Below are positions 4,825 to 50,275 of a stretch of DNA of 64,000 nucleotides, piece after piece (positions within the stretch are counted from its first letter, which is position 1; the number at the start of each line of letters is the position of its first letter). A program made the position numbers and the translations under genes. The DNA lies in NCBI GenBank assembly GCA_010093605.1, contig MU004181.1, forward strand, positions 2,914,001 through 2,978,000, written 5' to 3'. Under the pieces are notes generated by a model that worked only from the letters and a program-made list of their open reading frames with translations, made no database searches and was not told the origin of the DNA. The DNA is from Lophium mytilinum (taxonomy: Eukaryota).

Positions 4825-6010
4825 TTGTCCTCCAAATGAAATGTCATTATTAGAGCAGGACCGTTACATGCGCCTGGTCAGATATATCGGTAGGCGGCTT
4901 CGCACTCCCTCTATTTCCGGCCTCGCTGCTTCCAACATTGATTCCTGCCTTATTGCTCAACGCGCACTGACTGAGGGGAAGGCTTCAAGAGGATGCCGAG
5001 TCGAGCGACCACTTTTAGAACGCCAGAACGCCTCCGCCAGTCACGCGCACGCAATGATTCATCCTACGGCTGCAGTCCTGCCATGAACCTCATTGCTTCT
5101 TCCAGGAACAATATCACGAACGTGCCTCTGGCCCATCACCTTGTCACGGAGGGTAACATCGATGCTACGGGCTACGAGGCACTGCACGCAGGCTGGATAG
5201 AGCGTGTCCGGGTCCGCGAGATCTTATACGGCAATCGGAATCGGGGCCGTATGGATTGAAGCTCCGAGAAACATGATTCGCAATATTGTGAAGAGCAACC
5301 GTGGGGAGCTGCAGAGAGCGGAGTCAATTCAGTATATATATCAAGTATTAGTACACGGAGGCTCTTCCGTGTCTCAGTCTCCAACGTCCCTTGCAGGGCC
5401 GGCGTGGCCGATGCAGTTCGCCAAGCAGTTTCATCGTGGACCATCGTGGACGTAGATACTGTGCACCATTCGTGGCCGTTTTCCACTTCAGCCGGATCAG
5501 GCACGCCCGCACTCTCTCATACCGCTTTTGGCAAAGATAATCAGCGGTGTATGGACTCCATCGGGCTGAGATTTCAGCCTCGAGGGCCGAGATGCGCTTC
5601 GAGATGCAACCTTTTCGGCTGCCCGCCTGCATCCGGCGATTGTGGCTTGCACAAGCGACCTGACTCGAAAGCCCTATCGTAGCGTGGTGGGCCTAGCCTC
5701 AGGCAATTCAGGATCTGCAAGGGCTGTTCGAATCAGATGGTGTTGAAGGCACCATTTGGTCTTCTATTGGTCATGCAGCGAAAGGTGACAGTTCTTTCGT
5801 TCTACAAGTGAAGCTTCGTCCCCTCCCTTCAGAGATGTTATCATACATCTTGCCATCCCAGCAACATATCTTTTTGCGACCTTCTTTTGCGTATCTAGCA
5901 TTCGGTGTGTCCATTTCTTGGTCTTCGCCACCTTTCACCGCCTCTGAGAATTACCTGGAAATACGAACTCTCAATTCTACGACGACCGTCATTTAGCACT
6001 CGCATACGAT

Positions 6011-8194: not shown

Positions 8195-8536
8195 GGATTG
8201 GAGATGGGAGGTGTTTTGAGCTCAAGGAGGCGTCAGGGAATGTTCTTTTGGTTGGTATGTGATGATGGACGATGCTTTCCTTGTAACGAGGAATAGGCTA
8301 GGAATAATGCATGGGACGTCTTAAAGTGTGTATCTCTTTGCAATTAAAGCGCGACGGCTGTGTTCACGAATGAAAGAAGGGGCGCCGTTCCATATGCCGT
8401 GCCTTGAACGCCTTGACCATCTTAGGCGTGATTAGGTGAGTATTGATGCGATTAGATGAATCAGAATAGAAAAACTAAGATGTTAGGTGGGTGAGTTGAA
8501 CTTCTTCAACCTTCCTGCGAACAACCTTCGCATCGA

Positions 8537-10757: not shown

Positions 10758-11286
10758 TTACTTGAAACCACGTTACTACGCACACTTTGGTTAACATCAG
10801 CTTGAGCGTAAGAGTGAGGCTATCCCTTACATCTAAACAGAGACTGTGTTCGCGTGAAAGCGAAGGGAACGTTGCCAAGGTAGATGACTTTCGGACTTTG
10901 AAACCATTGTAAGTTGGTCCGCATACATGTTGATACTCGAAATGGGTGTTTTGCGTAAGAGCTGAGGGTCATAGAAATCTCACGGTTGCCTTCAGCATCA
11001 GGCATGAGCAGGGCTGAAGATTGGCGTCTTGGCTGCAGTCCGCTTATATTACCCCACGCGGCTCAGCTGCATGTCACTCGTGGCGATCGTGGTGTCTTCC
11101 GAAAACCGTCAAATTCCAATGTACTGATTTAAGAGCAATTACTTCATAATCGTGCAAGTAGCAATTGTAGAGACCAAGGTGGCCTTAACCTCTGCGATCC
11201 TCGAGCCCGTGTCGTGGAATTTTGCTTCACTTTTAAAGTGCTCATGCTTGATCTTTGTAGCGTAATACTTTCTCGCGGTATGTCTG

Positions 11287-12509
11287 CTAGAGAAAGGCTT
11301 GGTTAGCTTCCGAAAGGCGCACACGTGTCCCTTCTTCTTCAAGTTGCTCCTTTCCCACTTCAAGATCGTTCAGATGCGTGTTGTCGAGTGTGAAGATGTC
11401 TAGATATCTGATCTGCATCATCTGATGGAACATCGTTTGTCGTCTCGGGTAAGCGAGATCGGCCTCATATTGCCAATCTTGTGCTCTCTGAATCCAGCTT
11501 AACAGCCAAGACCTATTCAAACCGTCTTTGTCTGATGCTCGTCTTACACAGTCCGTCAATGTGGGATCGCTAAAGACGTAGGCACGCCGCTGGACCATCT
11601 TCTCAATTAGTAGCTTGAGGATGAGCCTTGAGGAGTTGTATGTCTCGACTGCGTTCATCAGATCAGCCCCAGAGGGCCGGACGGCTCGCTTCAGACGATG
11701 GGAGAGTAAAAGAGACAACAGGTCGTAATTGCCGAGCGTCAGTCCTTCCTGCCATGCTGAAGAAAAAACGTATCCCTTTCGATCCATTGTATGTCGCACC
11801 ATAACGGGATTGGTCGTTAGGAAGCGAAGGAATGCAAGCTTGTCAGCAGTGAATGGTCCGTGCAAAAGCTTCGGCGGAATGCGACAGTGAATAGCATTAA
11901 GATAAGGATGAAATGTGTCAGTATCTTCGTTTGACGGAGAAAAATTTGGAGGGCGCAGCTCGGGCCTCCCAAACCGGTTCCATTCCCTTTTTATGAAGCA
12001 GACTTCGGGACGGAAACGAGATATTGGATAGCCACATTGTGTGCCACCGTCGTACACCCGCCTGTGATACTCTTCGTATGCTTTGATAGCATAATTTTGA
12101 AACAAGCTCCATGTCATCCAGCGCCGTGAAAAGAGCCATCTTTGGTGTATCGGACTGGGTGCATTGTCGTGGTAGTAGAAGAACCCTTGGAAACAAAAAT
12201 GCATGTATATGTGCTAATTACTTGTTAGATACCGCTGCGCACAACGTTGAATGCCAATCTCACCTCACAGGATAGTTTGGAACCGACGAGACTACTGGCT
12301 TGGGGTAGGAAGTGGTTATTGCTAAGCACAGTAATTTCCTGCAATATCTCGGCGGGGAGCCTCTCCAAAGGAGACAGGGCAGGAGGCTGGCCATTGATTC
12401 GACGAATCCGAAAAGTCTTGCTGATTCGGTGTTTAGGTTTCGTGACCTTCAAGTCCACGAGTCGCTCTGGGGCCTTTGTTGGCCGGGTGCTTCTTCGGAC
12501 TACCATCAC
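11287..12509 (-). CDS. Hypothetical protein with F-box-like N-terminal motif, 2 exons
   Basis: Exon 1 LSPLERLPAEILQEI..SNNHFLPQAS..VGSKLS; GT-AG intron near 12262-12200; long second-exon ORF. Confidence 0.7.
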
Positions 12510-26223: not shown

Positions 26224-27719
26224 TTAACCCTCTACATCGCGCATTGGGTAACGCGCCCTTCCCCTAGATCGCCGAAGCAACTTACCGGACGATGGGCAGC
26301 TATCGACCTTCTTTCCGCTCTGAATCTTATTATCGGCAAGCTCTTCAGTAATAGTGTCTTTGAGATAGCAGAATCCAGGCCCTCCATTGGTTGGAGGGAT
26401 CCAAGAAGCTGCAACGCAGGTAGAAAGTGCGTTACACTCGTCGATACATCCAGCTATGCTATCAGCCTGTTGCGGGCTTGAAGGGAGATCATTTCCGTAG
26501 AAGTCAAGATAGCAGGAAATGACATAGTAGCCCCCTGAGGTCAAGACGCATTCGCCGTCGGATCCGGGGCACGTGGGTGGGGAGGGAAGGACAGTGGGTC
26601 CTGAGGTTGTGGTAGTGACAGAGGGCTGTGGAACAGTGACCGAGGCAGCAGACGAAGAGGGTGAGCTGACAGCGCTGGATAAGGAGGCTGAAGAAGATAG
26701 AGCAGACGAGAGCGTGGATGATGGCGTAGAGACCGGTGTAGATGATGGCGTAGAGACCGGTGTAGATGATGGCGTAGAGACCGGCGTAGAGGAAGGCGTA
26801 GAGGAAGGCGTAGAGGAAGGCGTAGAGGAAGGTGTAGAGGAAGGCGTAGAGGAAGGCGTAGAGGAAGGCGTAGAGGAAGGCGTAGATGATGGTGTAGAGG
26901 ATGGAGTAGAGGATGGCGTGGGGCTCGAAGTGGGAATCGGAGTGGAAGAGGCCGGTACTGGGGTGGACGACGCCGAAGAAGACGGTGGGGACGAGGAGGC
27001 ACTGCTCGAGGAATGAGACGTGCTCGAGGAATGCGAAATGCTCGAAGAATGAACCGTGCTCGATGAATGAGAAGAACTCTTTGAGCTCGGAGTGGGCGTT
27101 GGCGTGGCAGAAGGATGAGAAGATGTCTTTGAACTTGGCGAAGACGCTGGTTTGGTAGAAGAATGAGAGGAACTCTTCGAAGTCGGAGTGGATGCGGCTT
27201 TGGTCGAAGAATGAGGGAGACTCTTCGAGCTTGACGTGAAGAGTGGCTTGGTCGATGAATGAGTGGAAGACTTCGAGCTTGGCGTAGGCTTTGCGGATGT
27301 TTTCACCGGTGTGACAGTAAGCTGGGTTCCTGTCAGACTTGCGTATAGAGACCGGATAGACTCTTAGGTCCTGATCTTACCGTTTTGGTCACCGGGGTCT
27401 CGATGCAAGAGCACAAGGTACTCAAGAAGTGGCCCCCGGTCTTATATGCACTTGACCACTTAGCAGTACAGTCTTTCGGGACAGCGGTCGTCAAGAATTT
27501 CTTGCTGCTGGTTGGCGCGTGTCTGTTCGCATACTTGTGTGGAGTCGAAGTAACTGTGACAGTGTGCTTCGGCAAGGGGTAGTGAAGAGAGCAATAGCTT
27601 TCTGCAGCAGGGTGAGCTGACAAGACAAGAAGGTCCTTGTAGATTCCACTCGAGCAAACGGAAGCTGAAGCAGAAAGTGACAATGAAGCGAGCGTGATCA
27701 GACACACGTGGATACGCAT
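26224..27719 (-). CDS. Secreted Ser/Thr/Pro-rich protein with Cys-rich N-terminal domain and C-terminal Apple/PAN-like Cys domain, 2 exons
   Basis: Signal peptide MRIHVCLITLASLSLSASA; SYCS...STLCSCI; mucin-like PSST repeats; YVISCYLDFYGNDL...CIDECNALSTCVAASW...CYLK. Confidence 0.8.
26712..26920. repeat. Coding minisatellite: 12-bp unit (GCGTAGAGGAAG) plus a 24-bp variant
   Basis: Tandem gcgtagaggaag copies visible directly, encoding (PSST)n and (PSSTPVST)3. Confidence 0.95.
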
Positions 27720-29172
27720 GTTGATGAAAAGCGAGGTGCAAGCGACTCAAGCGAGTGAAGGTCGACGGAGCAAAGCAAGAACGGGCAAGATGAGGAGTGA
27801 AAAGCTTATGAAAAGAAGCAGATACATGGCGAATGGTAGTTATTATTGGAATATTCCGAGTGCATGTCTCCTCAGGGGCTAGGCCACGGAAGACGATCTC
27901 CCATAGAAGATGCTTGTCTATCCCGCGCAGGGACAGCCGTACCTGAATAGTGCACAGACCCCGGCCCGGTATAAAAGTTGAAACATCTTCCGCATCCTGT
28001 GATTGGCAGGAGGCAAGACTGTCGTCAGAGAGCTTCTTCGTTGTTGCTACCTCTTGGTACCTCTGTTGTTCTTTCATGTAGATGCCATGGGACGAAGTTT
28101 GAGCTAAAATGCGCCGTCTTCAGATCCCCTCGATGCAAGCTGCTGATAGAGAACAGTCCCGCAGACGTGGTGAACCATGGCCGAAGCGTTCCGGCGATAG
28201 ACCTGGGTGGGAAGCTCCCGTGGGTAGTGGGCTGTTGTGCTTGTCAAAAGGTGGGCGCTAAGCAGGATTGGGTCTATCATAGGAGAAACGGGCGGCGATT
28301 GTGGCGGCCAACTCATTCTCGTGGTGGAGATGAGGCGGCGGGAAGGGCGAGCTAGAGCACGTTTTGCTATCGGACAGTCTAAGACCACTATGCGCCACGG
28401 CTTTCGTGCCTGTTTCCTAACGGACAGCTGTCGATATTGTGGCGCCTGCACCTGGAGCCACCCTGAACCCTGACGATGCAGACATCGGGAGGGGTTCACG
28501 GGTGGAGAGGCTGAGAGCGTTCCGTGTTCTATTCGGGGAGAGCGGCATGAGCCGTTCTGTGACGTTGAAATCAGGGACACTCAGAAGAATCATTCCTTTT
28601 CAACATTCTACGTGAGATGGGTCGATATCCTGCCCGCACAATTGTGGAGGGTTGAAATGCATTGCATCTACAAACCTGGCCGCGATGCCAACTCACCGTC
28701 GCAGATATTGCTTCCTTGCTCCCTCTGTACGCTATTAATCTAAGATGACAGCTAGCACTTCGCGAATCAGCTTAGCAGTCATAGGAAGGCGTGAAACGTC
28801 CCAAGAGTACTGACAGGACAGACTTACACCTCACGTTCTGCAAAGGTAGCTTCAGGCTCGCAAAACATCATATTCTATTAACATCTCAGACTATTTACTT
28901 AACGCGTGTGTGCAAACCCCGCCGTGGACTACGTATTGGTGTGCACGAAGGAGAGTGCCCGTCTGCAATCTCCTAGTCTCAGCTCGGCGAAACTCTCGGT
29001 GGCACAATCTAAAGTGCAATAAAGATAGCCACATAGCTTGCTACGTACATACACTTCCCGGGATCTCGCCAACGCGCCTCTTTCCTTCCTGTGGCATGCG
29101 CTCTTGATCAATATACTCATATTGCAATGAATTCGGATTCGGATACATTCGGACGCGCCTAAGATTGTTGCC

Positions 29173-31252
29173 ATGCCCCGATCGCATCGCCGTTCGACCA
29201 AGGTCTGCACACGATGCAGACAACGTAAGACCAAAGTACGTATCGATGCAGGCTATGCTTCCTTCCACGGGCACCTGTGCTGATAAGCTGCATAGTGCGA
29301 CTTCAAGTTCCCCGCATGCACATCCTGCAGAACAGCAAATGCAGCTTGTCTGGGGTTTGACCCTGCGACGAGAGAAGCAGTCCCGCGAAGGTAATCACAC
29401 AATCTGCAGCCTTCCGCAGCCTGCGGCCTGTATTGGCGGCTGAAGATGCCCTCTATAGCTTAGTCAAGTCTCTTGAGGCTCGTGTGGCGGAACTTGAGGC
29501 CCAAGTGCTTCATTTTCGAGCAGCCCCTCAGAATGTGCCCTACTCCATGGCTTCCAAGATTGCGCAGGCCACTATTTCATTCGATTTGCCTAGGCATAGC
29601 TCGTTTCTGCACTCCAAGGTCTCCTCGGCTCTCTTTTTCCGCCCTTCATGCCCCCCGCTGGCTGTCATTGGGGAACGGGGAAGAGAAGAAGGCAAGTTTC
29701 CTGCCAATGAGCATTCCCCTGATCACCACAAAAGACCGTACACCGGTAGTCTGATCAATTTGAAAAGCGTGCCTCGCTCGGCCTTGACACGCATGATACG
29801 CAACTACGCTGATACTCATCTGCCTCAATACCCCTGCGTGGCTGAGTCTATGCTGGAAGATATCGTCCAATACACCCAGGATGCCGAACTTGGAGACACG
29901 AACTCGATCCTAATTTACGGGATCCCCGCTAATTCACGTCTTGGTCATTTTGAATACTTTACGCTTTTCATCGTTTTAGCTATTTCAGCCATCACTTTGA
30001 CGTGGAAAGCCGAAGATCAAGCGCGAGAGGCATCTGCGTCCTTCTACAAGTCCGCTTTGAAACACCTCCAGGCCCTAGAAGGTCACAGCGAGATCCAAGC
30101 CCTCCAAATTTCATTGCTCTTGGCCCATTACGCGCACATGTGTCCAGAGAGGGTGGACAATTGGACTTGCATTGCCAATGCAGTCCGGATAGTTTTAAGT
30201 CTGGGCCTATACGGGAATGGTCCAGAAGGGCTTGATGCAGAACAGGTCCAGCTACGATCGGCGCTCTTCTGGGTAACTTACGGAATGGAAAGGTCATTGT
30301 GCGCCAACCTTAGGCTACCCTTATCGTTTCCAGAAGAGATAGTCACTACCAAGGTAAGTGATCCCGCTCTACTCCTCTCCTTTCTCATTCACAGTAATAG
30401 TACCGACCTCCCCACGAAGAGCCTTCCCATGAATCTGCTGCCGATAGCGCAAAGAAGTCTTCTGCCCATCACATCTACCGGTATCGTGGTTTAGAGACCG
30501 AGGTCCATAGAGTACTCCATCTCGAAGAGGATATTCACACTTTTGGCAGCTCAACAGTGGAAGACTGGATTGTAGACATTACCGGTCGCTTAGTGTCCTG
30601 GTACGACGAGGCTCAACTCTACACACAGTATGACATGCTGGAGTTCAAGCATGTGCAATTCTACCACCTCAGGGCTCGTATTCATCGACCAACTCCCCGG
30701 CTGCGGGTGAGGGATTTTGAGGATCGACGCGTTGTCCTGGAATCATCTCTGGAATTGATCGAAGACTATCTTGGTCAGGACCGCAGACGAAGACTGTTCT
30801 ATCCCTGACATGGTGTTCATATTCTATTCGAAACCGCCGTCATCGCCCTAGAGGCATGCTGGTCATCTCGCGACTATCGGCCCTTGCGAGACCTGGCTCT
30901 GCAACTACTCGAGAGATCTATCCCCCAGTGCTTGCAGCTGCTCACCAGTATTGGGGACCGATGGAACGAAGCTACCTTATGCACCCGAAGCCTGACTCCG
31001 CTGCTTCAAAAGGTCTCATTCGCTTTCACCAGGAGCCAAGACGTCTCCGTTTACGACGACACGTTGATAACGGAAGAGATTCATAACATACTCTTTTCGG
31101 ACCAGTCCCTGACTTGGGATCAGGTCACACACACCCACTATGACTTTGGCGTGGAAGAAAATGCTTTGTTCTTCGACAACGCATCAGGTGATGATACGGT
31201 GCTCCTCCCGTGGGCCGCTGAGTGGGACATTATGCCGGCGGAGCTCCTATAA
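29173..31252 (+). CDS. PPR1/UaY-like Zn(II)2Cys6 transcription factor with an internal in-frame TGA (30806-30808)
   Basis: Spliced CTRCRQRKTK/CDFKFPACTSCRTANAACLGFDPATREAVPR/SLVKSLEARVAELE; LRSALFWVTYGMERSL; the frame continues after FYP-TGA as HGVHILFETAV to 31252. Confidence 0.85.
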
Positions 31253-31474
31253 AAAGGCACACACTTAGTGAACACGAAGGCTACGTGGCGATGCAACTTG
31301 GCGACTTCAAATTCACAATCAATATGTAAGGCATTGTCTTACGATTATAATACTATCGGACACGAAAGCACAGATACAAAACGTCCCAATTCATAACCCT
31401 CGATGTAGTGAGAGGATGGCCCAATAAATCTACACAGCCCAGAGACGCGTGGTTTCTTTATTGGCACAACCGAC

Positions 31475-33192
31475 TCACATGGCGTACACGAAACGTGGCT
31501 GCTGCTTATCGGTGAGATCGAGAAACTCCTCGTTCTCGACTGGACCATTGTCATCACTACTTTCCGCGAGCTTCTTCTGCTTTCGCGCATTCAACCATCT
31601 AGCATAACAGAAATAAAGACCGGGAGCAAGCGCAGCGATGGAGAACATAATAATCATAGTCTTGAACCCCATAGGGTAGCCAGGTGCCTCGCTGGCGCGG
31701 AAGAATTGGGGACCGATGATAAAGGCTGTGGAGTATCCGACAAAGAGGAGGGCGGTGGACACAGATCGCTTGGTCTGGCCGGCGATGTTGGTGGTGGTGA
31801 GAGCGAACATCATCGGAAGTGACGCGTTGGTGAAGTTGGTGCAGTAGAAGGAGACGAGCCGCCCCGTGCGATTGTGCTTAGGGAGCGTGTACACGAGAAC
31901 GGATCCGATGACGGCAGGGACGTTGCAAGCGAACTGCATCAGGCAGCGTGTGTTCGGGTAGTAGAAGGTTACGAATCCGGCGGTCACAAGCCCCATGCAT
32001 TGCGTCAACCCCAGAGGTGTGTTGAGCAGAGATGTCTTGAAGCTGTCATAGCCGAATCCTGGAGGAATGTGTTAATCCAAATAGCTTCATGTTCACGGGA
32101 AGACCGGTACCTTTGATGATGAGGCCGCCAAAGTTGGCCACCGCCGTGGCGGGAACGACACAGGCAATGCTGTAGAAGAAGCCATACCAGACCTTGATAT
32201 CAAGCAAGGCTTCGACGAGTTGTTCCTTCTTGAATGTAGTGTTCGAAATACCAGTCCGGTTGTCGCGCAGCCTTTCGATCGCAATCGCCCGTTCCCTTTC
32301 ATTGAGGAATTTGGCAGTCAAAGGGCTGTCTGGCATATATATCCACAGCACGGCACCCCACAATAACCCAACGATACCAAAGATGATGAAAAACCATCTC
32401 CAAACGGCGATACCAGTGTCGATGTGGGCAATTCCGTAAGCAATGAAGGACTGAAGGATGATCGCAAAACCATTTCCACAGTACCACGTGGTGATGCGGA
32501 GTGGAATCTCGTTCTTCTTGTACCATGTGCCGGTGATGAGGACGTATGCTGGAGATACACCAGCCTCGGCCATACCCAAGAAGAAACGAACTGCCATCAT
32601 TCCTCGGAAGTTCATAGCTCCGGCAGTGCAGAATAGAATGACTGCCCAAATGATGGAAGTGGTTGCCACGAAGCGACCAAGGGGCACATAGTTGAGCAAT
32701 CGGGCTGCAAAGGGTTGGAAGGCGAGATATCCAAAGTAGAAGATTGACCTGGAGCGTTCCAGATTGGTTGAAAACTTGAAGTTGGGTTTAGAGGATACTC
32801 ACGAGCACCAAGAGTACTGTTGACCTTTCAGTCCGAGATTCGAGATCAGATCGTAGACCGCCGATTGAGCCATGACACTCTTATCCATGTACTGGATCGT
32901 GTACGAGATAACCATCTGCCCAGAAAACTTGTGAGTACACGAAAAGCAAATACGGGGAAGAAGAGAAATAGATCTAGTTCACACAACGGAGGGGATATGC
33001 GTGACATACGAGTGGCATCAAGACCCAGTCAATCTTGCGTAGAACCGCTCTCTCCTCTTCTTTTGTGTATGTTATAACCTCAGACGTCTCAAGGTAGGCT
33101 AGAGCCGCATCTCCCTGTCCTGGTTTCAGGGCAGCCTTGAAATCCGGCTCTGAAGTAGAATTCATCTTGACAGAGATGCTTCCTTCACCCAT
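31475..33192 (-). CDS. MFS transporter, Dal5/allantoate permease (ACS) family, 4 exons
   Basis: EERAVLRKIDW, QYMDKS, RFFLGMAEAG, TWYKKNEIPLR, WRWFFII, NIAGQTKR, FLDLTDKQQPRFVY. Confidence 0.93.
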
Positions 33193-34008
33193 TGTGATAG
33201 TGTTTTCGAAGTGTGCAGATGTTGACTTTGAAGGAAGAGTTCAAATCTTCAACTCGAGGGTTCGACGGAGTAGTATGGACGTCCTTCCGTAAACGGGGTT
33301 CTCCACCCTGTAGATATGAGATTGACTCGATGAGTACTGGATGTAGATCCCAAATCGCAGGTTTGAGGCTCGACTAAATACCATACGATAGTCATTGTTG
33401 TTATCTTTCGTGAATATCAGAAAGATAGAATGCGATAGGTTGAGTAGTGCGTCAATGTGCTACATTATTCCGCAGTAGCTCAGTTACCAAGCTGGAAATC
33501 TTCAGTTAGGCGTTTCCCGACTCCATGGGCAAAATCGTCGCGTTGCGCCGAACCCGATTATCAGGAAGCCTAGTAGATAGCCTAGTGAGGTAGTTCCATT
33601 CTAGGCCTCATACAGGCCCCGGCTTTTCTCCGTCAAGAGTGGTGTGGAGAATCTTGACGAGGGTGCCAGAATTACCCCATGATGTCGAATTTAGTGCTTA
33701 TTAAAGACCTTTTACAGTCTGAGAAGGGACCGCGATGCAATTGTAGTATATACATGACATGGTACCTAAAGGGATGTATGTTAGACGGTTGCTAGTCACG
33801 TGCTCGGCTAACGCCAGCATATATCTCTCGCTGCGCGCCTCCTTTTCCTTTATCTCCTCAATGACTCGTCTCTCAATACCTGATTACCATGAATTCCATT
33901 TCCAGCCCACCCTTCCGCACTCCTATCTCTTACACAGTCTCTCTTTTCTTGAAGCAAAGCCGTTAGACTTAAAATTAACCATGTTGTTCTTGAGTCATTT
34001 GCACGTAT

Positions 34009-34020
34009 CGGGTTTACCCG
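34009..34020. promoter_or_regulatory. CGG-N6-CCG inverted repeat (PPR1/UaY-type site) in the MFS/amidohydrolase divergent promoter
   Basis: tCGGgtttacCCGg. Confidence 0.5.
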
Positions 34021-34255
34021 GTTTTGTCTAGTAAAATCACGCTTTGATCCGATGCGGTGCTTCCGATTCCGACTTTTCTTATCGTCTATAGTTCGGCTTC
34101 GCTCTACGTCTTTAGTTCGATAATACAATCCATGTTTCAATGCGCATATCTCAGAGGCGTTTTTGGATGATTTAGTTCTAGACGTAAAGTCTGCTCTATC
34201 GACGTAATCATTTCCATAGGCTCTTATTCGTCTAATGCTCGGATCAATAACCATC

Positions 34256-35664
34256 ATGACCCAATATACACTGCACACATCGTCGCTGTTCGATCCCAAG
34301 GCCAAACGAGTTCGACAGAATATTTCAATCACTGTTGACTCTGCAACTGGCCTGATCACTCGGGTCTTCGAGCGCGATGACAAAAAGGCACCTTTCTCTG
34401 AGACGATGAAGGAGGGAGATATTGACCTGCGCGCAAAGTATGTATTGCCTGGACTGGTCGACGCACATACGCATGTTTTCCTGCATTCTTACGAGTGAGT
34501 TCCCAGCTGCTTCGTTAGCGCTACTTCTGATTCCTAACCAAATCTATAGCGAGAGAGGTGCTCTGCAGCAGAAGAGAGACGAAAGCATGACCGAGAGAAT
34601 CGTCCGTGGGGTCAATCATTGCCGCACAGCGCTTCTTGCGGGCTACACAACCTACCGGTAATTATTTGCAGCATCCTTTTTTTCGTCTCTGTCGATTCTG
34701 ACTCACCTTCTGCTTGGTCAGGGATCTAGGTTCAGAAGGCATGCAAGAGTGTGACGCGAATTTACGAGATGCTATTGCTCGGGGTCTGACTCCTGGCCCT
34801 CGCCTATTCGTCGCGACAAAGGTCATTGCTAGCACCGGTTCTTACGAGTGTCGCACAGAGAACAGCGGTGGAGGCCACTGCTTACCCGCGGGCGCTGACG
34901 CTGTCGATGGGGTAGAACAGTGCCGTCAGGCAGTTCGACGACGTGTTGCCGCAGGAGCAGACATTATCAAATTCTTTGCAGATTACAGGCGAAGAATCAT
35001 GAGGTCTCCGCCTGCACAGCAACATCCTTATATTCCAGGTGTGCTTCATCCCTCCAAGGAGCCGAACCCTGACTATCTGGTGTTTTCACAAGAGGAGATG
35101 AACACGATAGTCGCAGAGGCTGCGATGGCACGCTGCCCGGTGTCCGCTCATTGCTGTACCCGCGAGGGAGCGTTAGCGGCCATCGAGGCGGGCGTCAACA
35201 CGCTTGAGCACGCTTATTTCCTTTCAGATGAGATGTGCAAGCTGATGGCCGAGAAAGCCATCATTCTGGTGCCTACGCTCGCAATTGCTGAGAAGCTGCA
35301 CGCCCACCGGTTTGACGAGATTTTGCGTCAAGTCAAACGAGCCCATGATCTTGGTGTTCGAATTGCATGCGGAGGAGATACAGGCACGTTTCCGCATGGT
35401 GACAATGTCAGAGAGCTAGAGCTAATGATCGAGGCCGGCATACCCATTGCGGATGTTTTAGAATCATGTACTGTGGGCGGCTGGGAGGCATGTGGCGGCG
35501 ATCTCTGTGGACGGCAATTCGGGTGGTTTGAAGAGGGCTCGCAAGCAGACATCATTGCTTTGGACGAGGACCCAGAATACAACCCTGGTGCTTTGAGATC
35601 AGTCAATTTTGTTATGAAAGATGCTAAGGTCTGGAAAGCTAGCGGCGAGCAGTGTGGTATATAG
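34256..35664 (+). CDS. Metal-dependent amidohydrolase (amidohydro_1; prolidase/ochratoxinase-like subgroup), 3 exons
   Basis: PGLVDAHTH, LLAGYTTYRDLG, GADIIKF (carboxy-Lys position), VSAH, TLEH, GGDTG. Confidence 0.92.
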
Positions 35665-35981
35665 TTTAGAAATATACAAAATATCGACAGACTCGAACTC
35701 ACATACTCATAATTCAAACGACGTATACGCTCCTCTGTAGACCTTTCAAGTTGTTTAAGCATACGAATCATATTTCTCAAGCTTACAGAGCGTTTGCGCT
35801 TTTTCAAGGGATGCATCAAATCAAAATGGCCCCAGAAAAACGAGTTTGGCGTCCCAAGTCATATGCGCACATAAATCCATAGATAAAAGGGTCCCATCAG
35901 CATGTTCAGTTATCTACGTCTTATTTGCATCGATTCCTATGAACAGACTCAAGTCTACCATAGGCATCTGACACCGGATCA

Positions 35982-37854
35982 TCATCGTAGGAGAGGCTCA
36001 GCATCAACTCCAGGAACTAAGTCGGCCAACTCGTCCTGAGATTGCGTCAAGCACTGCTCTAGAACTGATGTATCCCTTGGCGTAAACCTTACTTTAAATT
36101 CCGAGGCGATAGAGTTTGACTCAGTTGAATCACGTTTATACTTAACATAATCTGTGTTCGGAGGTGACACTTTACTCTCCGTGATTTTAAAGGACACGAT
36201 CAAGCGGAGAAATAGTGCGTAAAGCACTCGATTGGAGAAGTTGACAGCAGTGCACATACGGCCACCAGCTCCAAAAGCGAAGTGGTACGGTGGTGGAATG
36301 CCATGGTCCTTCTCTACCCATCGGTCTGGGCGGAACTGGTCGGCGTCGGGGCCATAAGTGTTTTTGTCTGGCTTCTAATTAGCGAACAAATACGCATTCG
36401 ACCAGAAAATGGAAGAAAGTGCCTACCGCGGTTTATCGCTTGGGTGTTGATATAAACGAGCACACCTTTCGGGATAGTAGCTCCTTTATAGACAAATTCC
36501 GTGAAGGTCTGTCGCGCTGGGAGGAGTTTTAGCGGTGGATAGAACCTCAAAGCTTCTTTCACCAGGCCAACCAGGTAGGGACTCTTCTCCTCCGTTAAGC
36601 AAAGCTTAAAAGAATCTTCAGGCGTATCGTAGACTTTCATGATATCGTCGTAAGCCTTTTGTTGCATCGACTGTCCCTGCGCCGTCGATAACATTCCAAT
36701 GGTGATAATGGCAGTTGAATAAATAGTCTCGAACCCGCCCGACATAAGGCCACCGAGAATAGTTTTAATATCAACTTTGAAGGTTAGCATCCTTCCGGCA
36801 GGAGATATTTCGAATCAGTGACACATACGCGCAGTGAGGTCCTCCTGGCCACTGTCTGCAAGCAGCATTTCGGCCACGCTCTTTTTAGGCCCAGTGCGCA
36901 GATTGAACGTGTGACGAACATTGTCCAGCATTTTCGCCAGCCATTCGTCCCGGCGGCTACGGACCTCTTTGGCCGTTGTCATTCGTCCATTTCCACCGAG
37001 ATATCTCAGGTGAGGAATGAAGTCTTGAGCATTGGAGTTCGTTGACCGAAAGCTGTAAAGCATGAGCGTCCATGTTATTCAACACGTGGGTACCCCATTC
37101 GGGAGTCATACCTAGCAATGGTGCTGGCGTCTTTCAAGATCTGAAGAAGTAGAGGGTCTTTGACCGAAGAAAAGCGTGTGCCGTAGCAAAACATCATCAT
37201 GAGATTTAGAGCGAGCCGCTCCTGGTAAATATGAGGCATAATTTCGGCTGTTCCCTTTTGACTGTCATAGTAGAGCGTCGAGATTACTGCGCAAGTCTCC
37301 ATGTCTAACGCATTTCGCAGCTTTTGAATCGAGGGTCCCGTCGTGAATGCGCCCACGACCCGTCTCTGCTTTTTAGTCCTCTCATCCCAAGGGCTTGTTC
37401 CGATTGTTGCGGCTGTAGTGAATGATTTCAGCACACGTGTTAATCTTAGGAATAGCTATCACCCACCTGAAGTAGCCGAAATGATTCCATGGAACGTGTA
37501 GAACCATGGTCGATCCAAGGTGGCTGACTGGTTTTTAACAATCCAGTCACGAGCGGCCTCAAAAGAATTTAGCATGATAGCCCGTCGTCGTCCCATTCTG
37601 AGCTGAAAAACGGGCCATCCATATCTGGAGGCCCATGCTTCCGCAGTGGTGGCATGGTCCGTTCCCAGTTTATAGAGATGGCCAGCGAGGAGTTCACCGT
37701 CTGGAATTTCGGGAATCCCGTTGATTTTCGGTATATCAACGTAGAAGAAGTAGAGATAGACAAATATCACCGCAGTGATTGTTGTCACGAAGAGGCCCGA
37801 GAAAAGCAAGAGTTTGGACCTGAAAGGGGAAAGTACGATGTCCATGGCGGGCAT
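35982..37854 (-). CDS. Cytochrome P450, CYP504-like (phenylacetate/hydroxyphenylacetate hydroxylase family), 5 exons
   Basis: IPEIP..GHLYKLGTDHA, DRPWFYTFHGIIS, TIGTSPWDE, GGFET, KEALRF, heme motif HFAFGAGGRMCT. Confidence 0.88.
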
Positions 37855-38147
37855 ATTTTCTCAATAGCGAGTAAACAAAAGAGTACAAATGGCCGAACGG
37901 TGTCTCTTGACATGCTCTGGGGCTATCCAAATATGCAGGAGCTCGTCCGTGAACTGGTCTTGAAGGCACATTGGTAAAAAAAATTCGGAGTATACAAATT
38001 ATCCATTTTTAGCGTAACAATCCCCAGCGCATTGACGAGGAAATCGGGTGATAGGGTCGTCGGCGTATCGCGTCGGTTTTCCACAATCCGTCGCAGAACG
38101 GCGAAAAAGGCCCAGTTTCGGGCCGTTTCCCCAAACTCAATCAGCTG

Positions 38148-38159
38148 CGGTTTCCCCCG
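38148..38159. promoter_or_regulatory. CGG-N6-CCG site in the P450/SDR divergent promoter
   Basis: gCGGtttcccCCGa. Confidence 0.5.
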
Positions 38160-38296
38160 AACGATCTGAAAGAGAATGAATAGATAACGTTTAACAAGAT
38201 TCTGAAAGCGACGTAAACTTATACTGCATACAATGTAGACGCCTTGAAAGAGGTTGTCAAGTCTCATCACGGATTTATCAAAGGCTAATTTCGATT

Positions 38297-39382
38297 ATGG
38301 CAAACCATCTGCGGGTGAACGAGCTTTTCGATGTTGCAGGTCGCTGGGTAGCAATAACTGGCGCGGGTGAGTCCTCTCAAAATCCCCCTTTAGCCACCGA
38401 TATAGTGTGGTTCATTCACTGACGTCGACTATTTAGCTTCCGGTATAGGTCACATGCTTGCACGAGGCTGCACAATTAACGGAGCAAATACAATATTAAT
38501 AGATGTCAACTTGGACTCTCTATCAAGCGTTAAGGCCGAACTAGAAAGCCTCTCGTCTTCTTCTGAAACCGTCGTGTTCGTCTGCCGATGTCCCCCTTAA
38601 AGATTGATTCACTGACATAGATGACAGTATTCATGGCGACCTTTCAAGTGAGGATGGAATCAAGGAAGTCGTGGAGAAAGTCAAGTCCACACAAACTTCA
38701 CTTGATGCGCTGATTCATTGTGCTGCGGTGCGGTACATGAATGAAGTCACTTACGTTCCAGGCGATGCCCTGGACAAACTCGAGGCTGCAACGCTATCTG
38801 CACCTTACGAAGGCTGGGAGCATACTTTTAGGCTAGCAAGTCGTCTATGCTTGGGATGCTTGAGTAAGATGCTAATCGTCTACTAGAATGTTCTCGCACC
38901 TTATTTCTTGACTGCTGGCTTGATTAGCCTCCTCGGAGCGGCAGCCGCAAAGGGTGAGGGAAGGGGCTGCGTGATTTTGTTTAGCAGTCCCGCCAGTGTG
39001 CACAACCACCAATTCGTTCCTTGCTACCAAACTTCAAAGGCAGCAGTGGACCACCTTGTTAGGATTATGGCGGCCGAATTTGCCGACTACTATAGTAAGA
39101 CTCAGCATACTTACAGTACACCCTCCAGCTTACCAGTCTGCAGTCAGAGTCAATGCCATGTCCCCTGGAATAGTTCCGTCTGGAATGACGACAAGTAATG
39201 CTGAATCGAATCTTCATCTGGCTGCTGAGGCCCCAGCGGGCCGAGCCGGCAGTGAAGAAGATATGGTGGGAAGCGCATTGTGGTTGATGAGCAAAGCCGG
39301 CGCTTTCATGGACGGGAAAGTCATCCGAATTGATGGAGGACGGTTGCTCATTCTCAAAGGCGTGACATCAAACTCCGACTGA
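38297..39382 (+). CDS. Short-chain dehydrogenase/reductase, multi-exon
   Basis: VAITGA/ASGIG glycine motif across an intron, catalytic YQTSK, RVNAMSPG, IRIDGG. Confidence 0.9.
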
Positions 39383-39835
39383 CGTAGCGTCATGCCTCAA
39401 TAAATCCTCTCGATGGTGATATATCTAATTGATCCAATGTATGTACAGAATTCAGCGGTTAGTGCGTCTTTTCAAAGGTCCATATTCCGGTATCCTATCG
39501 AAAGGTCAGACCTAGAATCGTGAGTGCATTGGTAACAGTTGGATTGCACGTCATCCAGCAAAACTCTGTATTAAGAGTGCTCAAATTTGGAGAGAGATGA
39601 GCCGAGCGGGATGCACCCGCAATCTAGGTATCATGGTCATGTTTGACTTCTGCGGAGAAAGGATTGAAATAGAACCCATTTTTACGTGACAGGCTCGAAT
39701 AGAGAATGACAGAAGTAGCAATGGAGCTCGATCCTCAGAACATGTAGCGAATAAGAAAGACGTATCTATAACATTGAAAGCACTCACAAAGCAAGACTTG
39801 AATTCCCACATAGCCCAGAACACGTAAGAGTGGGC

Positions 39836-39847
39836 CGGATCACTCCG
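39836..39847. promoter_or_regulatory. CGG-N6-CCG site upstream of the C45 hydrolase
   Basis: cCGGatcactCCGt, about 195 bp upstream of ATG 40042. Confidence 0.5.
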
Positions 39848-40041
39848 TCGGCAGACACTAAATTGTCGCGAAAAGCCGACGATGCAGTCCAGTGCAGGAG
39901 GTCTTATCAAATCAATTATTAGTTCAGACTGTTTCCTTGCCCAAAATGAACTCACTATCTGAGCCCTTCGATTTTATTCCTGCTCGAATCTGAATTTTGT
40001 CAAAAAACCACTAGCATCTTGCGCACTCGAAGGTCGAAACC

Positions 40042-41139
40042 ATGCCGTCTGGAAACGCACGTAGCGACGTCGCTGAATGCTGGAACGGAGTACCCGAGGT
40101 CATAGCTAGCGGTTCACCTTGGGAGGTTGGGTTCGCTCACGGAAGTCAAATACCACATCGGATTGCAGTATGCATTTCCAACTATGAGCGGCTTTTCCTT
40201 GAAACTGCCGAAGCCGACTGGACAGAATCGAAGGCCAGAGCAGCTACATATCTTCATTCTTTAGAAAAGAACGAGCCAGATCTTGTGGAGGAAATGCGCG
40301 GAATTGCTTCTGGTGCCGGACGGGATTTCTTGGATATCCTTGCGCTCAATTTGCGTAGTGAGATAGCCTTGACGAACTATTCAGATGGATGTACGTCAAT
40401 CGTCACGCGAAACGCCGCTCGAGGAGAGGTGTACCTAGCACAGAACTGGGACTGGGTAGGAGAAGCCGGCACGTCAACCGCCTTTTTCGACATTCGACCA
40501 ACCGGCAAGCCACGACTTCGGATGATGGGAGAGGCAGGAATTGTAGGCAAGTTTGGATTCAACGACTCAGGTGTTGGCGTCTGTATGAACGCGATCAGGT
40601 GTGGAACAGTCGACAAGTCTCACCTGCCTGTTCATCTTGCGATGCGACGGATCCTAGAGTGCAGGTCATTTGACGAAGCCCTGGTTATGTTGACCAGCAA
40701 AGGGCTAGCCACATGTGCAAATCTTGTGCTTGCCGACAAAAGCGGAAAAATTGCTACCATCGAATGTACACCAAAAGGTCTAGCTCCTATTTTTCCGGAG
40801 CCAGGAAGCTGGACGACTTTCCACACCAACCATCTTTGGTCGCCGCACGTACCTGCCGGCATTCGGGACCATCCTTCTAAAAATTCTTTCTCCAGGCTAG
40901 AACGAATCAAAGTCTTGAGTGAAGACCAAGAAGCAAGCGTAGAGAAGATCCGATCATGGCTTTCAGACGACGAAGGAACGCCTGTGTCCATCTGTCGCTC
41001 TACGCCAGACAATGCCGTCGGTATCGAGAGGATGGAAACTCTGGCAACGATTATTATTGACCTGCCAAACTTGAAGACTGAAGTGTCCTTTGGCAAACCA
41101 AGCCTCTCACCTCCCGTGCGTACTTTAACGATCGAGTAG
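40042..41139 (+). CDS. Peptidase C45 / acyl-CoA:6-aminopenicillanic acid acyltransferase-like Ntn hydrolase
   Basis: GFAHG, EEMRGIASGA, LNLRSEI, autocleavage site DG|CTS, AQNWDW, EAGIVGKFGFNDSGVGVCMNA, HTNH; intronless; no C-terminal PTS1. Confidence 0.92.
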   Translation: MPSGNARSDVAECWNGVPEVIASGSPWEVGFAHGSQIPHRIAVCISNYERLFLETAEADWTESKARAATYLHSLEKNEPDLVEEMRGIASGAGRDFLDILALNLRSEIALTNYSDGCTSIVTRNAARGEVYLAQNWDWVGEAGTSTAFFDIRPTGKPRLRMMGEAGIVGKFGFNDSGVGVCMNAIRCGTVDKSHLPVHLAMRRILECRSFDEALVMLTSKGLATCANLVLADKSGKIATIECTPKGLAPIFPEPGSWTTFHTNHLWSPHVPAGIRDHPSKNSFSRLERIKVLSEDQEASVEKIRSWLSDDEGTPVSICRSTPDNAVGIERMETLATIIIDLPNLKTEVSFGKPSLSPPVRTLTIE

Positions 41140-41270
41140 CGAACATGGAGAGAGGACAAATCGGATGGCAAGCATGCTGCTTGATGAGTTGCGGTATCCT
41201 TCGAAACCCTCCATACCGCCGAACTTGATTGATGACGTCTCGCGTTGGGGACGGTGATAATGACTAAGCT

Positions 41271-43094
41271 TCATGTCATTTGAGCTGGTTCGAAGTCAAG
41301 CAATTCTACAATAGTCCTCCAAACTTGGAGATAGCGATGGCCGCCCGGCCAGTGTGGCGCAAACATAGATAGGATATCCGTACACTTGTTTAAGTCTTTC
41401 GTATGGAACTGTGAGGAGATCCATCTTTTGGAGATACTTGTGACGATTGCGCAGCCAGAGACGAGGGCCCTCGAGCTAGCTAAGATTGGTGGAATGAAGT
41501 CGTCCTTCGCGGTCGCAGCTCGGTGAACTCTGAGTATGAGCTGAGACGCCGCATCGATGACCTTGCGCCTCAAGCTTCTCATCCCTTTGGTACCGTGCTC
41601 ATCCGCCTCTTGGAAACAATGAATGCACTGCTTATGGTTGACGCAGACAGGCAAGAACAAAAGCCAACTTTCGAGGATAATTGCATGTTGATTTCCGACG
41701 CTTTCGGCCAAATCCATTAATGTGGCAACTTCACCAACGAATGGGCAGCCGCTGCTTTCGAATATTTGACCACCACCATATAATTGATCAGATAACTGGA
41801 GGAACACTTGGAACAGAGCCTCCTTATCAGAAGTATCCAGCAGCTTAGACGCAATTAACATGGTCGGTCGATTGAAAACTGTTTGTAAATCTCTATAGGC
41901 GGTAAGCCTAGGCAAGCACGTCGATACTGTATTGCGCTTACTTCTCAATATCCTGAAGTGCAGATATCATTCCGAGCTTACTGGGACTAGAACTGTTCGT
42001 CTCTGCCGTGCCTCCGCTCTCTAGCGAAGCGGCGCCAAAGTGTGAGATTCGTAGAGTTCGATGCCAGCCCAGCTGCAAGCATGTTCGTCTAGCGAGGTCG
42101 AGTAATTCCCAAGCATTGCCTCTGGTTGAATCCGCTAGCTCATATATGAGAAGCAATAGTGTCGCCGATAGCGCATCACCATCTGGCGTAGATATGATGG
42201 GTGTGACCAACTCGTTCGCCCAGTCTCGGCAGACCTGGGCTAATGGCTTCCAATCAGGACGCTTGTAGCTTTCGCAGGCAGCAGCAATTGCGCATGCCAT
42301 GAGTACCTTGAATTTCTGGGGATCAGGCAGCTTTTTAAAGCCCGCCCCGTCATGATTCAAGATATCTGTCTCTAGAACATCATATTGAGGCCTAATACAG
42401 CTGTCGTAGCGGCCGAGAAGAAATCGAACTATTTTGGGGGTCAGTAGGGATCTATTTAGGCCGTGTGAAATGTTTGGCATGGAATCAACATCGTCGGCGG
42501 CGGCGTCTAGGGCATCAGGTATCCTCCCGGGCAGTAAGAGTGCTCCAAACGTCGTTCCTGTGATGCGTGATGCAAAGGAAAGGTTCAGATATAGGTCCGG
42601 CCCTACGTCTCGTACAGAGACATGTAGAGGGTGGACTAGTTGCGGATTTGAAGATGCTATTGCCGCTGATGTTGTGCCCGTTGGATCGGTATGCAAGAAA
42701 TCGCTTCGTGAGTTTTCTAAATTAGCTAGATTGCATGACGTAACTAGTTGCAAATGACTTACTTGGGCAAACGGTGTGAGTGCAGAGCCAGCTCAGAGCT
42801 CAACTCTTGAATCCGATTGTTCAAGGACTGGATGTAACTAGATACTAAGTGAGTTCAGAAGTTGCGAAATTCGCTACAAGACGCAGACTTTCTAGGGATG
42901 TCCTTCTGGAGAGCCTCGTCTCTGAATTTGCAATCTAAATCGCCTTTGGCACAATTGGAGCATGCTGGAAGGAGGGAATCGCACTGCGGTATTGACGTCA
43001 GGGACAAGATCATCCTCGGTTTGCCCATGGGGACTATGCAGAGATGGAGTACCTTAATTCTTCGTTGCCGACAACGCGTGCATGTCTGCAGCAT
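41271..43094 (-). CDS. PPR1/UaY-like Zn(II)2Cys6 transcription factor, multi-exon
   Basis: MLQTCTRCRQRRIK/CDSLLPACSNCAKGDLDCKF...DIPR/YIQSLNNRIQEL; WELLDLARRTCLQLGWHR. Confidence 0.85.
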
Positions 43095-43219
43095 TGTGTG
43101 AGGCTACAGCTCCTACTGTCCACGAGATCCCGTGTGGTTGGTTCTTGGATGCCAGTAGTAAGAAAGGACAGATTGGAAGCAAAGCGAATCCTAGCAGAAA
43201 ACACGTCTGATGAGAGTGT

Positions 43220-43231
43220 CGGAGATCTCCG
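43220..43231. promoter_or_regulatory. Perfect palindrome CGGAGATCTCCG (CGG-N6-CCG) upstream of the second TF
   Basis: tCGGagatctCCGc, about 125 bp upstream of ATG 43094. Confidence 0.5.
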
Positions 43232-47780: not shown

Positions 47781-49243
47781 GGCTTTTAGTCTTATCAAAA
47801 CTGACCGTTTCCGATCTCTCAGAATGTGCTACAGGACTCTAGGCGGTGCTAGGCTAGCACACGAAAAGCCTAAGGGGCATATGTTGGAGTTTCGAATAAT
47901 GGAGCGCAGAGCTGTAAGTTGTAAAGTTATCTTACCTGGAGTTTATATAGAATTCACTAGCATAGAGATACGTCTCGAAACTGTAGGATCATCTGACCAG
48001 GTTGCACTACATTCTCTACGCCGCGACCGTACTGATATCCCTTAACCCGCTGAGACGCGCTCAACGATATCGCGCCAATCGGAACGTATCGCTTAGCTTA
48101 TCTCGTGCTCCGATTAGCTTTTGGCAAAAGAGTTGTAGGTTTGCAGCGGGTTAAGGGATAGAATGGGCTTTTTCCGAGCCACGGGCGGCCGTAGAATGAT
48201 TGGAACCGACAGAGCAGGTCTTTCTCAGGGTTAGCAACATGTGCTAGATATGTTTTCTCGCTTAGGAGCCACTTAATCGGCACATAATCCTAAGTGCAAG
48301 ACCTTTCAATCAGATCGCTCCATTTTCTCCCACGCTGCAACCGTACCAAACATAGAGAGTTGATTGTCAGAAACGCGGGCGGTTGTAGATTGAATGGAAA
48401 TTGCAGGAAGACATTGCCAGTGGGGAGTGGGAGAAGCCGATGAGCAGAGGCAGATATGGTGTGCTGGTCGATAACGGCCCCGCTGTGAATTTGCTGCGTC
48501 GGGTATTTTCGCACTGGATGGGCATTCTAGTGGGGAGAAGCGTGATGGGGGATCGAGGAGTGCTGAGTGGATGTAGACATTGGTAGCTGGCCCTGGGACT
48601 CGCACTGATGGAGAACACAATGTTATACTGCAACACACGTGGATACATACTTTCAATCCGAAGGCGGGAGTCTAGCCCGCAAGTGTTTAGCGCATTGCGA
48701 TTGCAAAACCATGTTCAATGAAGATGCCAGGTCTCGGATGATGGAAGACAGGGCGGTCGTGTTAGCCAGTTTCAAGCTAGATGTTAGAGAGATCTCAACA
48801 CAGACTTGTTTGCATTTTGTGCAAGCTGAGCCCCTGATCAACTACCCAGGTCCAAATCGTAGAACTGAAACACGACAGAGGAAATCAGCTTGAACGAGAG
48901 ATCGCAACCGGAATGCGCCATTTTCATCGTAGTGATGAAGTGGAACGGAGAGCAGTGAATCATAATCTGGGTAGTCAAGATTCGGGTCCGGAATAACCTT
49001 CCTCCGCTGCAAAACGAAACCTCGGCGTACTTAAGCCCTGGCCTAGTGCCCGTTCCTCACCAGGACACCCTTGCACTACACCGTGTGTTATCATACCCAA
49101 GAGTCTCCCTAGAGGACGATTCTGAATTTGTACCTACGAAGCACCTCACGACTACCATTACGACCAGGACGGCTACGACTACTACCAACACCATCATACT
49201 AGGCACTCTGCGATAACTCACGTGCCTCTTCATTTCTTCTGCT

Positions 49244-50275
49244 ATGGAAGCCCCTCTCAAAAAGGTTCCAGCAGCGCTACTGCCAGAATGGATTTCAGAC
49301 TTGCCTCCACCCGTGAAGGTTCAAATGGAGGCTCGCGAAAAAGGACTCGATGATGACACGATCCCCCCTCCCGGAAACGTTCTAGCAGCGCCACTACCAG
49401 AATGGAGTTCAGACTTGCCTCCACCACCCTGGATCCTTCAAACGGCTCGCGTAAACCGACTAGATGATGATACGATCCCCCCTCCCAGAAGGGTTCCACC
49501 AGCGCCACCATCACTATTGGAGTCAGGCTTACCTCGACCCGTGATGCTTCAAATGGGGGCTCGCATAAACCGACTCGATGATGACACGATCGGAAAATCT
49601 GGCAGCAGAGTACGGCCTCGAGAGGAGGCTGCTATGAGGCTCGTGGCCAAACATACTGATGTTCTAGTCCCCGATGTTCAGTATTCTACCTACAACGAGG
49701 TTCATGGCGATCTATTCATGAGCATCATTCCAGGGTCGCCTCTCAGCGTCCATTGGGAGAAGCTTGATGATCAAACGAAGGAGCGCGTCTGTCATGATAT
49801 CTGGAACCTGATCGGGAAGTTTCGACAGATCCCAAAGCCACCTGAACTCAACAACTTCTTCCTTTGCTCGGCCGACGGGTCTTGCAGCCAGGACGTGTTT
49901 ATCGAAGATCTGGAATCTCCTCCTCGACCTCTTGTCGATGATGATGCTGTTAGAACTCGGATATCTGAACGCTACTATCACTATTATGGTCGAAGATATA
50001 CTAAGGAGGAGATACTTAGCTTGCTTCCTCACTCTCAGGCCTCCGTCTTCACGCATTGCGATATAGCACCAAGAAACATCATGGTGGACGACCACACTTA
50101 CCAGATCACAGGACTTATTGACTGGGAATTTGCTGGTTGGTATCCGGATTATTGGGAATATTTGAGAATCCATAAATATAACAACAACGAGGACTGGCGC
50201 GACTGGATGAACCGTACGGCACCGCAAAAATGGGATCTGGCAGGTTTCGTTGCGGTTAGTCGAGTGCTGTTCTAA
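49244..50275 (+). CDS. APH/choline-kinase-like phosphotransferase with tandem N-terminal repeats
   Basis: EEAAMRLV..HTDVLVP, LFMSIIPG, VFTHCDIAPRNIMV, GLIDWEFAGWYPDYWEY. Confidence 0.88.
   Translation: MEAPLKKVPAALLPEWISDLPPPVKVQMEAREKGLDDDTIPPPGNVLAAPLPEWSSDLPPPPWILQTARVNRLDDDTIPPPRRVPPAPPSLLESGLPRPVMLQMGARINRLDDDTIGKSGSRVRPREEAAMRLVAKHTDVLVPDVQYSTYNEVHGDLFMSIIPGSPLSVHWEKLDDQTKERVCHDIWNLIGKFRQIPKPPELNNFFLCSADGSCSQDVFIEDLESPPRPLVDDDAVRTRISERYYHYYGRRYTKEEILSLLPHSQASVFTHCDIAPRNIMVDDHTYQITGLIDWEFAGWYPDYWEYLRIHKYNNNEDWRDWMNRTAPQKWDLAGFVAVSRVLF
49250..49592 (+). repeat. Three imperfect 114-bp (38-aa) coding tandem repeats
   Basis: gatgatga(c/t)acgatc recurs at 49349, 49463 and 49577. Confidence 0.9.

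Follow-up and report, generated by a model that had tools for sequence, protein, structure and literature searches.

The 64,000-nucleotide stretch analysed here (the window; Lophium mytilinum, contig MU004181.1 of assembly GCA_010093605.1, forward-strand positions 2,914,001 to 2,978,000) carries inverted CGG triplets separated by six bases (CGG-N6-CCG) in the promoter regions of a seven-gene cluster whose two end genes encode zinc-cluster transcription factors, TF1 and TF2. The favoured explanation, held with moderate confidence, is that these sites are upstream activating sequences (UAS) of a catabolic cluster, putatively bound by its two end-encoded regulators of the Ppr1 class, most likely as a TF1–TF2 heterodimer. 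By Pfam, the gene order is TF1 (+), a major facilitator superfamily (MFS) transporter (-), an amidohydrolase (+), a cytochrome P450 (-), a short-chain dehydrogenase/reductase (SDR, +), a C45 hydrolase (+) and TF2 (-). The window is fungal, and across the searched regions TF1 and TF2 match proteins labelled Lophium mytilinum without a difference.

A motif scan recovers the four 12-mers described in the initial annotation at their positions, together with a fifth exact site upstream of TF1, where none had been seen; taken alone, this fifth site is weak (P ~0.25). Both reported near-misses are present, the first beginning one base later than stated (33294, not 33293). No strand is assigned to these elements.

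28543..28554, CGG-N6-CCG, in the divergent gap upstream of TF1, 630 bp before the TF1 ATG
33294..33305, near-miss CGG-N6-CCA, about 100 bp before the MFS ATG
33620..33632, CGG-N7-CCG, a spacing wrong for Ppr1
34009..34020, CGG-N6-CCG, -247 from the amidohydrolase ATG and about -820 from the MFS ATG
38148..38159, CGG-N6-CCG, -149 from the SDR ATG and about -300 from the P450 ATG
39836..39847, CGG-N6-CCG, -206 from the C45 ATG
43220..43231, CGG-N6-CCG, a perfect palindrome, 126-137 bp before the TF2 ATG

Two further exact sites lie nearby outside promoters, one at 39237 within the SDR coding sequence and one at 44522, probably in an intron of the gene that follows.

The signal resides in placement only, because the window as a whole is at chance level, with 13 sites against 12.98 expected. 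The genome holds 6,967 copies in 43.4 Mb, or one per 6.2 kb, which replaces the rate of about one per 4 kb assumed at first; the four promoter regions first described do total less than 3 kb (2,932 bp). The probability that all four contain the motif by chance is 4.1e-5 by dinucleotide shuffling (3,000 shuffles of each region) and 1.2e-4 by the genome rate, and for all five regions 1.0e-5 and 2.6e-5, respectively; these figures and those of the controls below are uncorrected for the number of clusters or windows scanned initially. When any of 63 spacing and orientation patterns of CGG pairs is allowed, 1.3% of shuffles fill all four regions and 0.4% all five, and inverted N6 is the sole one of the 63 that occurs in all four real regions. 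Among ~850-bp windows upstream of other zinc-cluster genes, taken from the top of 150 listed genes minus two Ppr1-type genes at contigs C12 and C7, the motif is found in 4/40 (Fisher test against 4/4, P = 5e-4), and one of 16 non-coding gaps from the rest of the window has it. Against this background of whole-genome counts, promoter windows and local gaps, as distinct from a genome-wide promoter set, the 4/4 placement stays well above chance. The sequence hallmark of a Ppr1-type UAS, inverted CGG triplets 6 bp apart, is present in these promoters above chance. An extended CGGAG half-site was rejected as a diagnostic feature: it appears in 5/10 exact sites against ~15% genome-wide (P = 0.01), a comparison made post hoc, and it is also found at purine loci.

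The spacing agrees with the proteins. Ppr1 binds CGG half-sites 6 bp apart (PMC10250231, PMC11534201) and needs a spacer of that length (PMC10250231), and half-site spacing is set by the linker (PMC4245848). The best PDB match of both regulators is Ppr1 (1PYI), with E=2.6e-12 for TF1, gap-free through linker and helix, and E=2.3e-5 for TF2, gap-free over residues 15-59. The first two cysteines of TF2 are encoded in exon 1, as placed by RNA joints from a run that is taken as RNA from its spliced joints, with no RNA on its record; its contig depth was not used for ranking genes. The distance from the sixth cysteine to a Pro-Arg pair is 11 residues in 12/13 TF1-type and 8/8 TF2-type proteins checked. 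TF1 and TF2 each combine a Zn2Cys6 domain, a Ppr1-length linker and a dimerisation helix, a combination characteristic of the Ppr1/UaY class and in line with the class assignment made initially. As both linkers are Ppr1-length and the linker sets the spacing, N6 is the spacing expected from the proteins. At the base-contact position corresponding to Gal4 K18, TF1 has the lysine, and TF2, like 8/8 of its orthologues, has arginine in its place, a substitution that may relax one half-site.

Conservation of the motif in orthologous promoters is supportive but thin. The C45 clade comprises about 55 orthologues with 58-87% identity across ascomycete classes. Of the 80 loci from a metagenome scan, few were close, and usable upstream DNA of close relatives came only from L001/L005 (which differ once and are counted once), L002, L004 and L018; L003, L006 and L007 have less than 160 bp upstream. 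In L002 (68% C45 identity, SDR upstream and TF2 downstream), the 385 bp C45 promoter carries two exact sites (shuffle P = 0.002), one of them at -206, the same distance as the 39836 site of the window. L018, with a 51% C45 paralogue, has one exact site at -234 (P = 0.08). In this comparison, proposed initially as a check, exact sites are found in L002 and L018 and not in L005 or L004, both discussed below.

Several lines of evidence point to TF1 and TF2 acting as a pair, a matter on which the initial annotation was silent. Judged by their locus tags or accessions, orthologues of TF1, TF2 and the C45 hydrolase are neighbours in Aspergillus, Talaromyces, Colletotrichum, Exophiala, Elasticomyces and Lachnellula (for example BJY01DRAFT_236708/236709, BDV06DRAFT_212298/212297, CGMCC3_g5542/g5541, UA08_02688/02686 and A1O9_02065/02067). 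In L004 (1000-4408), TF1-like and TF2-like genes lie head-to-head, 163 bp apart, beside a 53% C45 hydrolase. A sister cluster in the same genome (contig C6, 336000-351000; L093, L094) contains a further TF1-like/TF2-like pair, next to genes for an M20 hydrolase, a probable permease, a FAD monooxygenase and a 2OG dioxygenase. The two types differ at their C-termini: the net acidic charge of the last 50 residues is 6 to 15 in 18/18 TF1-type proteins and -3 to +2 in 12/12 TF2-type proteins, and the C6 pair splits alike (12 vs -1). Among these proteins an acidic tail, putatively an activation domain, is confined to the TF1 type, and the TF1 of this strain has lost it to a stop codon. Structure prediction for a TF1–TF2 complex, built without alignments from Thozetella orthologues (P0130 residues 1-470 and P0222 residues 1-520), gave a score of 0.75 against 0.07 for the best of three controls, with runs agreeing in at least 51% of contacts and a partner pLDDT of at least 67. 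The score mark used is reached by 51/78 solved complexes and 2/108 mismatched pairs (39/65 and 2/126 among eukaryotes). Predicted contacts extend beyond the coiled coil, with TF1 79-98 placed against TF2 104-118 and 501-513. The model supports a predicted TF1–TF2 interaction, and a heterodimer is plausible.

The C6 cluster also contains four asymmetric N6-register sites that are nearly identical, CGN-T(G/C)TTCT-CCG, located in three promoters within 10.3 kb; the pattern occurs 88 times in the genome. By pattern scan, the C6 sites are at:

339818
340263
346635
350047

A looser form, CGN-NN-TTCT-CCG, is also present in the L002, L018 and L005 promoters, and both asymmetric patterns were defined after the sites had been inspected. 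As a separate observation, contig C7 (1470400-1475600; L089) has another head-to-head pair of zinc-cluster genes with Ppr1-type linkers and one N6 site in the shared gap, and no acidic tail is found in either last segment examined.

Under the heterodimer model, each subunit would read one CGG half-site, six bases apart, with TF1 supplying the activation domain and TF2 acting as a DNA-binding partner that lacks one. A pathway metabolite would switch the dimer on, and TF2 would feed back on its own promoter; autoregulation through the putative 43220 site is plausible. A broader proposal, still tentative, is that this arrangement represents a recurring two-part switch of filamentous ascomycetes, in which paired Ppr1-class paralogues, encoded in the catabolic cluster that they control, would be obligate heterodimer partners. 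One would be the activator and the other a DNA-binding subunit without the tail, and together they would read an asymmetric N6-register site with one strict, extended half and one relaxed half. The cassette would move between fungal classes together with its sites, and the window, the C6 cluster and L004 would be three versions of it.

A number of observations weigh against the heterodimer model or the role assigned to the sites. TF1 and TF2 are paralogues with 19% identity, close cousins of true partners pass the complex test in 10/12 cases, and the score, obtained for the heterodimer as the only combination modelled, may reflect likeness to solved Ppr1 and Gal4 homodimers. The window's own sites fit the asymmetric sister-cluster consensus only partly and none exactly. 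L005 has no exact site in its three promoter regions, which hold one-mismatch sites only; its cluster (4785-11600) is decayed, keeping the amidohydrolase-P450-SDR-C45 order with a stop in the SDR gene, a frameshift in the P450 gene, a TF2 remnant only, and neither TF1 nor MFS within 10 kb. No exact site occurs in the 163-bp gap between the L004 regulators, and just one intact orthologous promoter, that of L002, is readable. The RNA contig of the amidohydrolase begins at 33826, upstream of the 34009 site, although such contigs cannot fix a start. The motif also lies upstream of 6/6 purine loci in this genome (uricase, allantoicase and four genes of the xanthine/uracil-permease family, whose start codons were inferred by the present authors). 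Finally, the proposed substrate class, N-acyl amides, is assigned from enzyme families only.

Among the alternatives, the one that survives best, unlikely as it is, holds that the cluster regulators read the sites as homodimers, with TF1 as the activator and TF2 as a competitor, a repressor or a dispensable protein. The solved complexes of Ppr1, Gal4, Put3, Hap1 and Leu3 are homodimers (PMC10954478), and in Aspergillus clusters with two regulators usually one is an activator and the other a co-activator, a repressor or without effect (PMC8395729). The missing acidic tail of TF2 and the perfect palindrome at 43220 fit this view as well. It is harder to reconcile with the contacts beyond the coiled coil in the high-scoring TF1–TF2 model and with the asymmetry of the C6 sites.

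A rather improbable alternative is that the sites serve UaY/Ppr1 of this genome, or a further paralogue with a Ppr1-type linker, which would place the cluster under purine or nitrogen control. Locus L112 on contig C12 is presumably a separate UaY-like gene, judged by a signature that we take to be characteristic, and other genes with Ppr1-type linkers are also present in the genome. Together with the six purine loci, this means that the site does not name its reader. The initial claim of independent evidence for a single regulon is upheld as regards placement above chance; as independent evidence that it is these two regulators that read the motif, it does not stand. A single regulon is likely. 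The purine loci show that the motif tags genuine regulons of this genome, and cross-regulation is possible. Purine or nitrogen control gains from the GATA-rich MFS/amidohydrolase promoter and from the fact that TF1 is truncated here, yet spliced RNA comes from cluster genes. Against it, the cluster enzymes are outside the purine pathway, and L005, which lacks TF1 and retains only the TF2 remnant, has no exact sites. The full UaY site, which we take to be TCGG-N6-CCGA, is found in 0/5 window sites, though just 1/7 purine-locus sites has it. Independently of this comparison, TTCGG-N6-CCGA was observed in L097 (2749-2764), in a promoter shared by a regulator with a Ppr1-type linker and a divergent MFS gene.

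Chance placement of a short, common motif chosen post hoc is quite improbable: the genomic abundance, the chance-level window count, the 1.3% obtained with 63 patterns and the fact that this window is one of very many read speak for it, and against it stand a spacing predicted from the linker and alone among the 63 patterns in filling all regions, the previously missed site that makes the placement 5/5, the two L002 sites with one at the same distance, and the low control counts.

The state of TF1 in this strain bears directly on how the favoured switch would work at present. The initial annotation did not mention the following feature, identified in the model spliced by RNA joints:

30806..30808, + strand, in-frame TGA at codon 487 of 634 of TF1, where orthologues have tryptophan

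The corresponding residue is tryptophan in 47/53 long homologues (one has another residue and five lack a pattern match), and the stop removes the last 148 residues of TF1, including the acidic tail. The letters at the stop are the same in two DNA runs, which are possibly the source sample and hence not independent, and in the one spliced RNA-like run, in which a contig spans the position without a joint. Assembly error as the source of the stop is ruled out by this agreement between DNA and RNA-like runs. The one RNA-like run gives no sign of A-to-I editing at the stop, and such editing is not known from this fungal class. The public TF1 model (P0121) omits the stop segment by means of an intron absent from the RNA contig, so the public gene model conceals a nonsense mutation. 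TF2 is intact in this strain. Because the stop cuts off the acidic tail, induction of the cluster is probably weak or absent here and the switch crippled, as judged from sequence; the sites are likely to be remnants of a switch that has lost full inducing capacity in this strain.

The cluster comprises the following genes:

29173..31252, + strand, TF1, a Zn2Cys6 regulator that combines a Ppr1-type linker with a Fungal_trans domain and an acidic tail at the C-terminus (Pfam; 1PYI E=2.6e-12; RNA joints; spliced model)
29236-29295, 29391-29458 and 30354-30400, + strand, TF1 introns (RNA joints)
31475..33192, - strand, MFS transporter of the anion:cation symporter type (PF07690; TIGR00893 below cut-off)
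34256..35664, + strand, amidohydrolase of the ochratoxin-amidohydrolase / Xaa-Pro dipeptidase / carboxypeptidase group (PF01979; PDB 8YAG, 8IHQ, 4C5Y; spliced RNA)
35982..37854, - strand, cytochrome P450 (PF00067)
38297..39382, + strand, SDR (PF13561, PF00106)
40042..41139, + strand, peptidase C45 / isopenicillin-N acyltransferase-like Ntn amide hydrolase (PF03417; NF040521; PDB 2X1C/2X1D)
41271..43094, - strand, TF2, an intact 531-aa Zn2Cys6 protein with a Ppr1-length linker, four introns and no acidic tail (Pfam; RNA joints; 1PYI alignment)

The MFS transporter is presumably Dal5-like, and the P450 may resemble CYP504 phenylacetate hydroxylases; a comparison of the P450 with the ESM Atlas gave nothing finer than 'P450'. 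The promoter shared by the MFS and amidohydrolase genes (33193-34255) contains 12 HGATAR motifs against 4.9 expected (P = 0.0025), an excess significant in 1/5 regions only. The amidohydrolase, C45 and symporter likenesses, combined with this GATA-rich promoter, suggest that an amide, such as an N-acyl amino acid, is taken up and hydrolysed. In the proposed pathway, the cluster, which probably breaks down N-acyl amides, would import an N-acyl amino acid or similar amide, which two amidases would cleave; the acyl part would then be oxidised by the P450 and the SDR, and the pathway would serve partly as a nitrogen source. The C45 and TF1 proteins of the window are 84-87% identical to proteins of Lachnellula, a member of another fungal class, and a quick tree places the C45 protein beside Lachnellula (support 99), apart from Elasticomyces, the other Dothideomycete. 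Horizontal movement of the cluster is possible on these similarities.

RNA-like contigs also cross neighbouring genes: one (30399-33332) continues from TF1 unspliced across the entire MFS gene, and another (39787-41892) continues from TF2 across the C45 gene, with a joint on the minus strand at 39493-39787. These contigs may represent long antisense read-through from each regulator into the adjoining gene. Elsewhere in the window, a minus-strand gene at 26224-27719, the first exon of which has no Pfam match, encodes a Ser/Thr/Pro-rich protein that contains short tandem repeats and is probably secreted. At 49260-49600, within the open reading frame 49217-50275, a unit of roughly 117 bp is present in about three imperfect copies.

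The motif and the regulator class are textbook; the cluster and its regulator pair did not come up in the literature searched. The gap-free alignment through the Zn2Cys6 domain, linker and helix and the CGG-N6-CCG inverted repeat resemble Ppr1 of Saccharomyces cerevisiae and Candida albicans, for which the repeat with its 6-bp spacer is described (PMC10250231, PMC11534201). Ppr1 is a single gene, and its homodimeric product controls pyrimidine or purine genes that are unlinked, whereas here two paralogues share a cluster with genes for amidases, a P450 and an SDR. Two zinc-cluster paralogues per element are also known from Oaf1/Pip2, Pdr1/Stb5, Pdr1/Pdr3, Rds2/Gsm1 and Rds2/Ert1 (PMC10954478), which are global regulators of yeast and, unlike the present pair, not encoded within a cluster under their own control. 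Two regulators per cluster, one of them the main activator, are described for AflR-AflS, DbaA-DbaG and HasA-HasF (PMC8395729); those clusters are biosynthetic, whereas the present one looks catabolic and both of its proteins keep Ppr1-type DNA-binding and dimerisation regions. The UaY regulon of Aspergillus nidulans shares the structural class and, with the UaY site as we assume it, the motif, which the purine genes carry here as well. TF1 and TF2 differ from UaY in not being the genome's closest UaY-like gene (L112), in their patchy distribution and in their non-purine neighbours. No account of this cluster or of a cluster-encoded Ppr1-class heterodimer was found in a literature search that left most subscription journals and supplementary tables outside its reach, nor did that search find a split into activator and tail-less partner of the Ppr1 class; the accessible text of PMC6265462, PMC8478523, PMC13532921 and PMC11502921 does not describe the cluster.

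If the obligate heterodimer is real, it would explain how several paralogues with Ppr1-type linkers in one fungal genome share CGG-N6-CCG yet control different pathways, and an asymmetric-site switch would allow many clusters to employ the Ppr1 spacing while avoiding cross-talk with UaY. According to PMC10954478, no structure of such a heterodimer from yeast had been reported, and an obligate TF1–TF2 complex would offer a tractable zinc-cluster heterodimer for structural work. More generally, the analysis defines the boundaries and the likely switch of a widespread, probably mobile cluster for amide catabolism.

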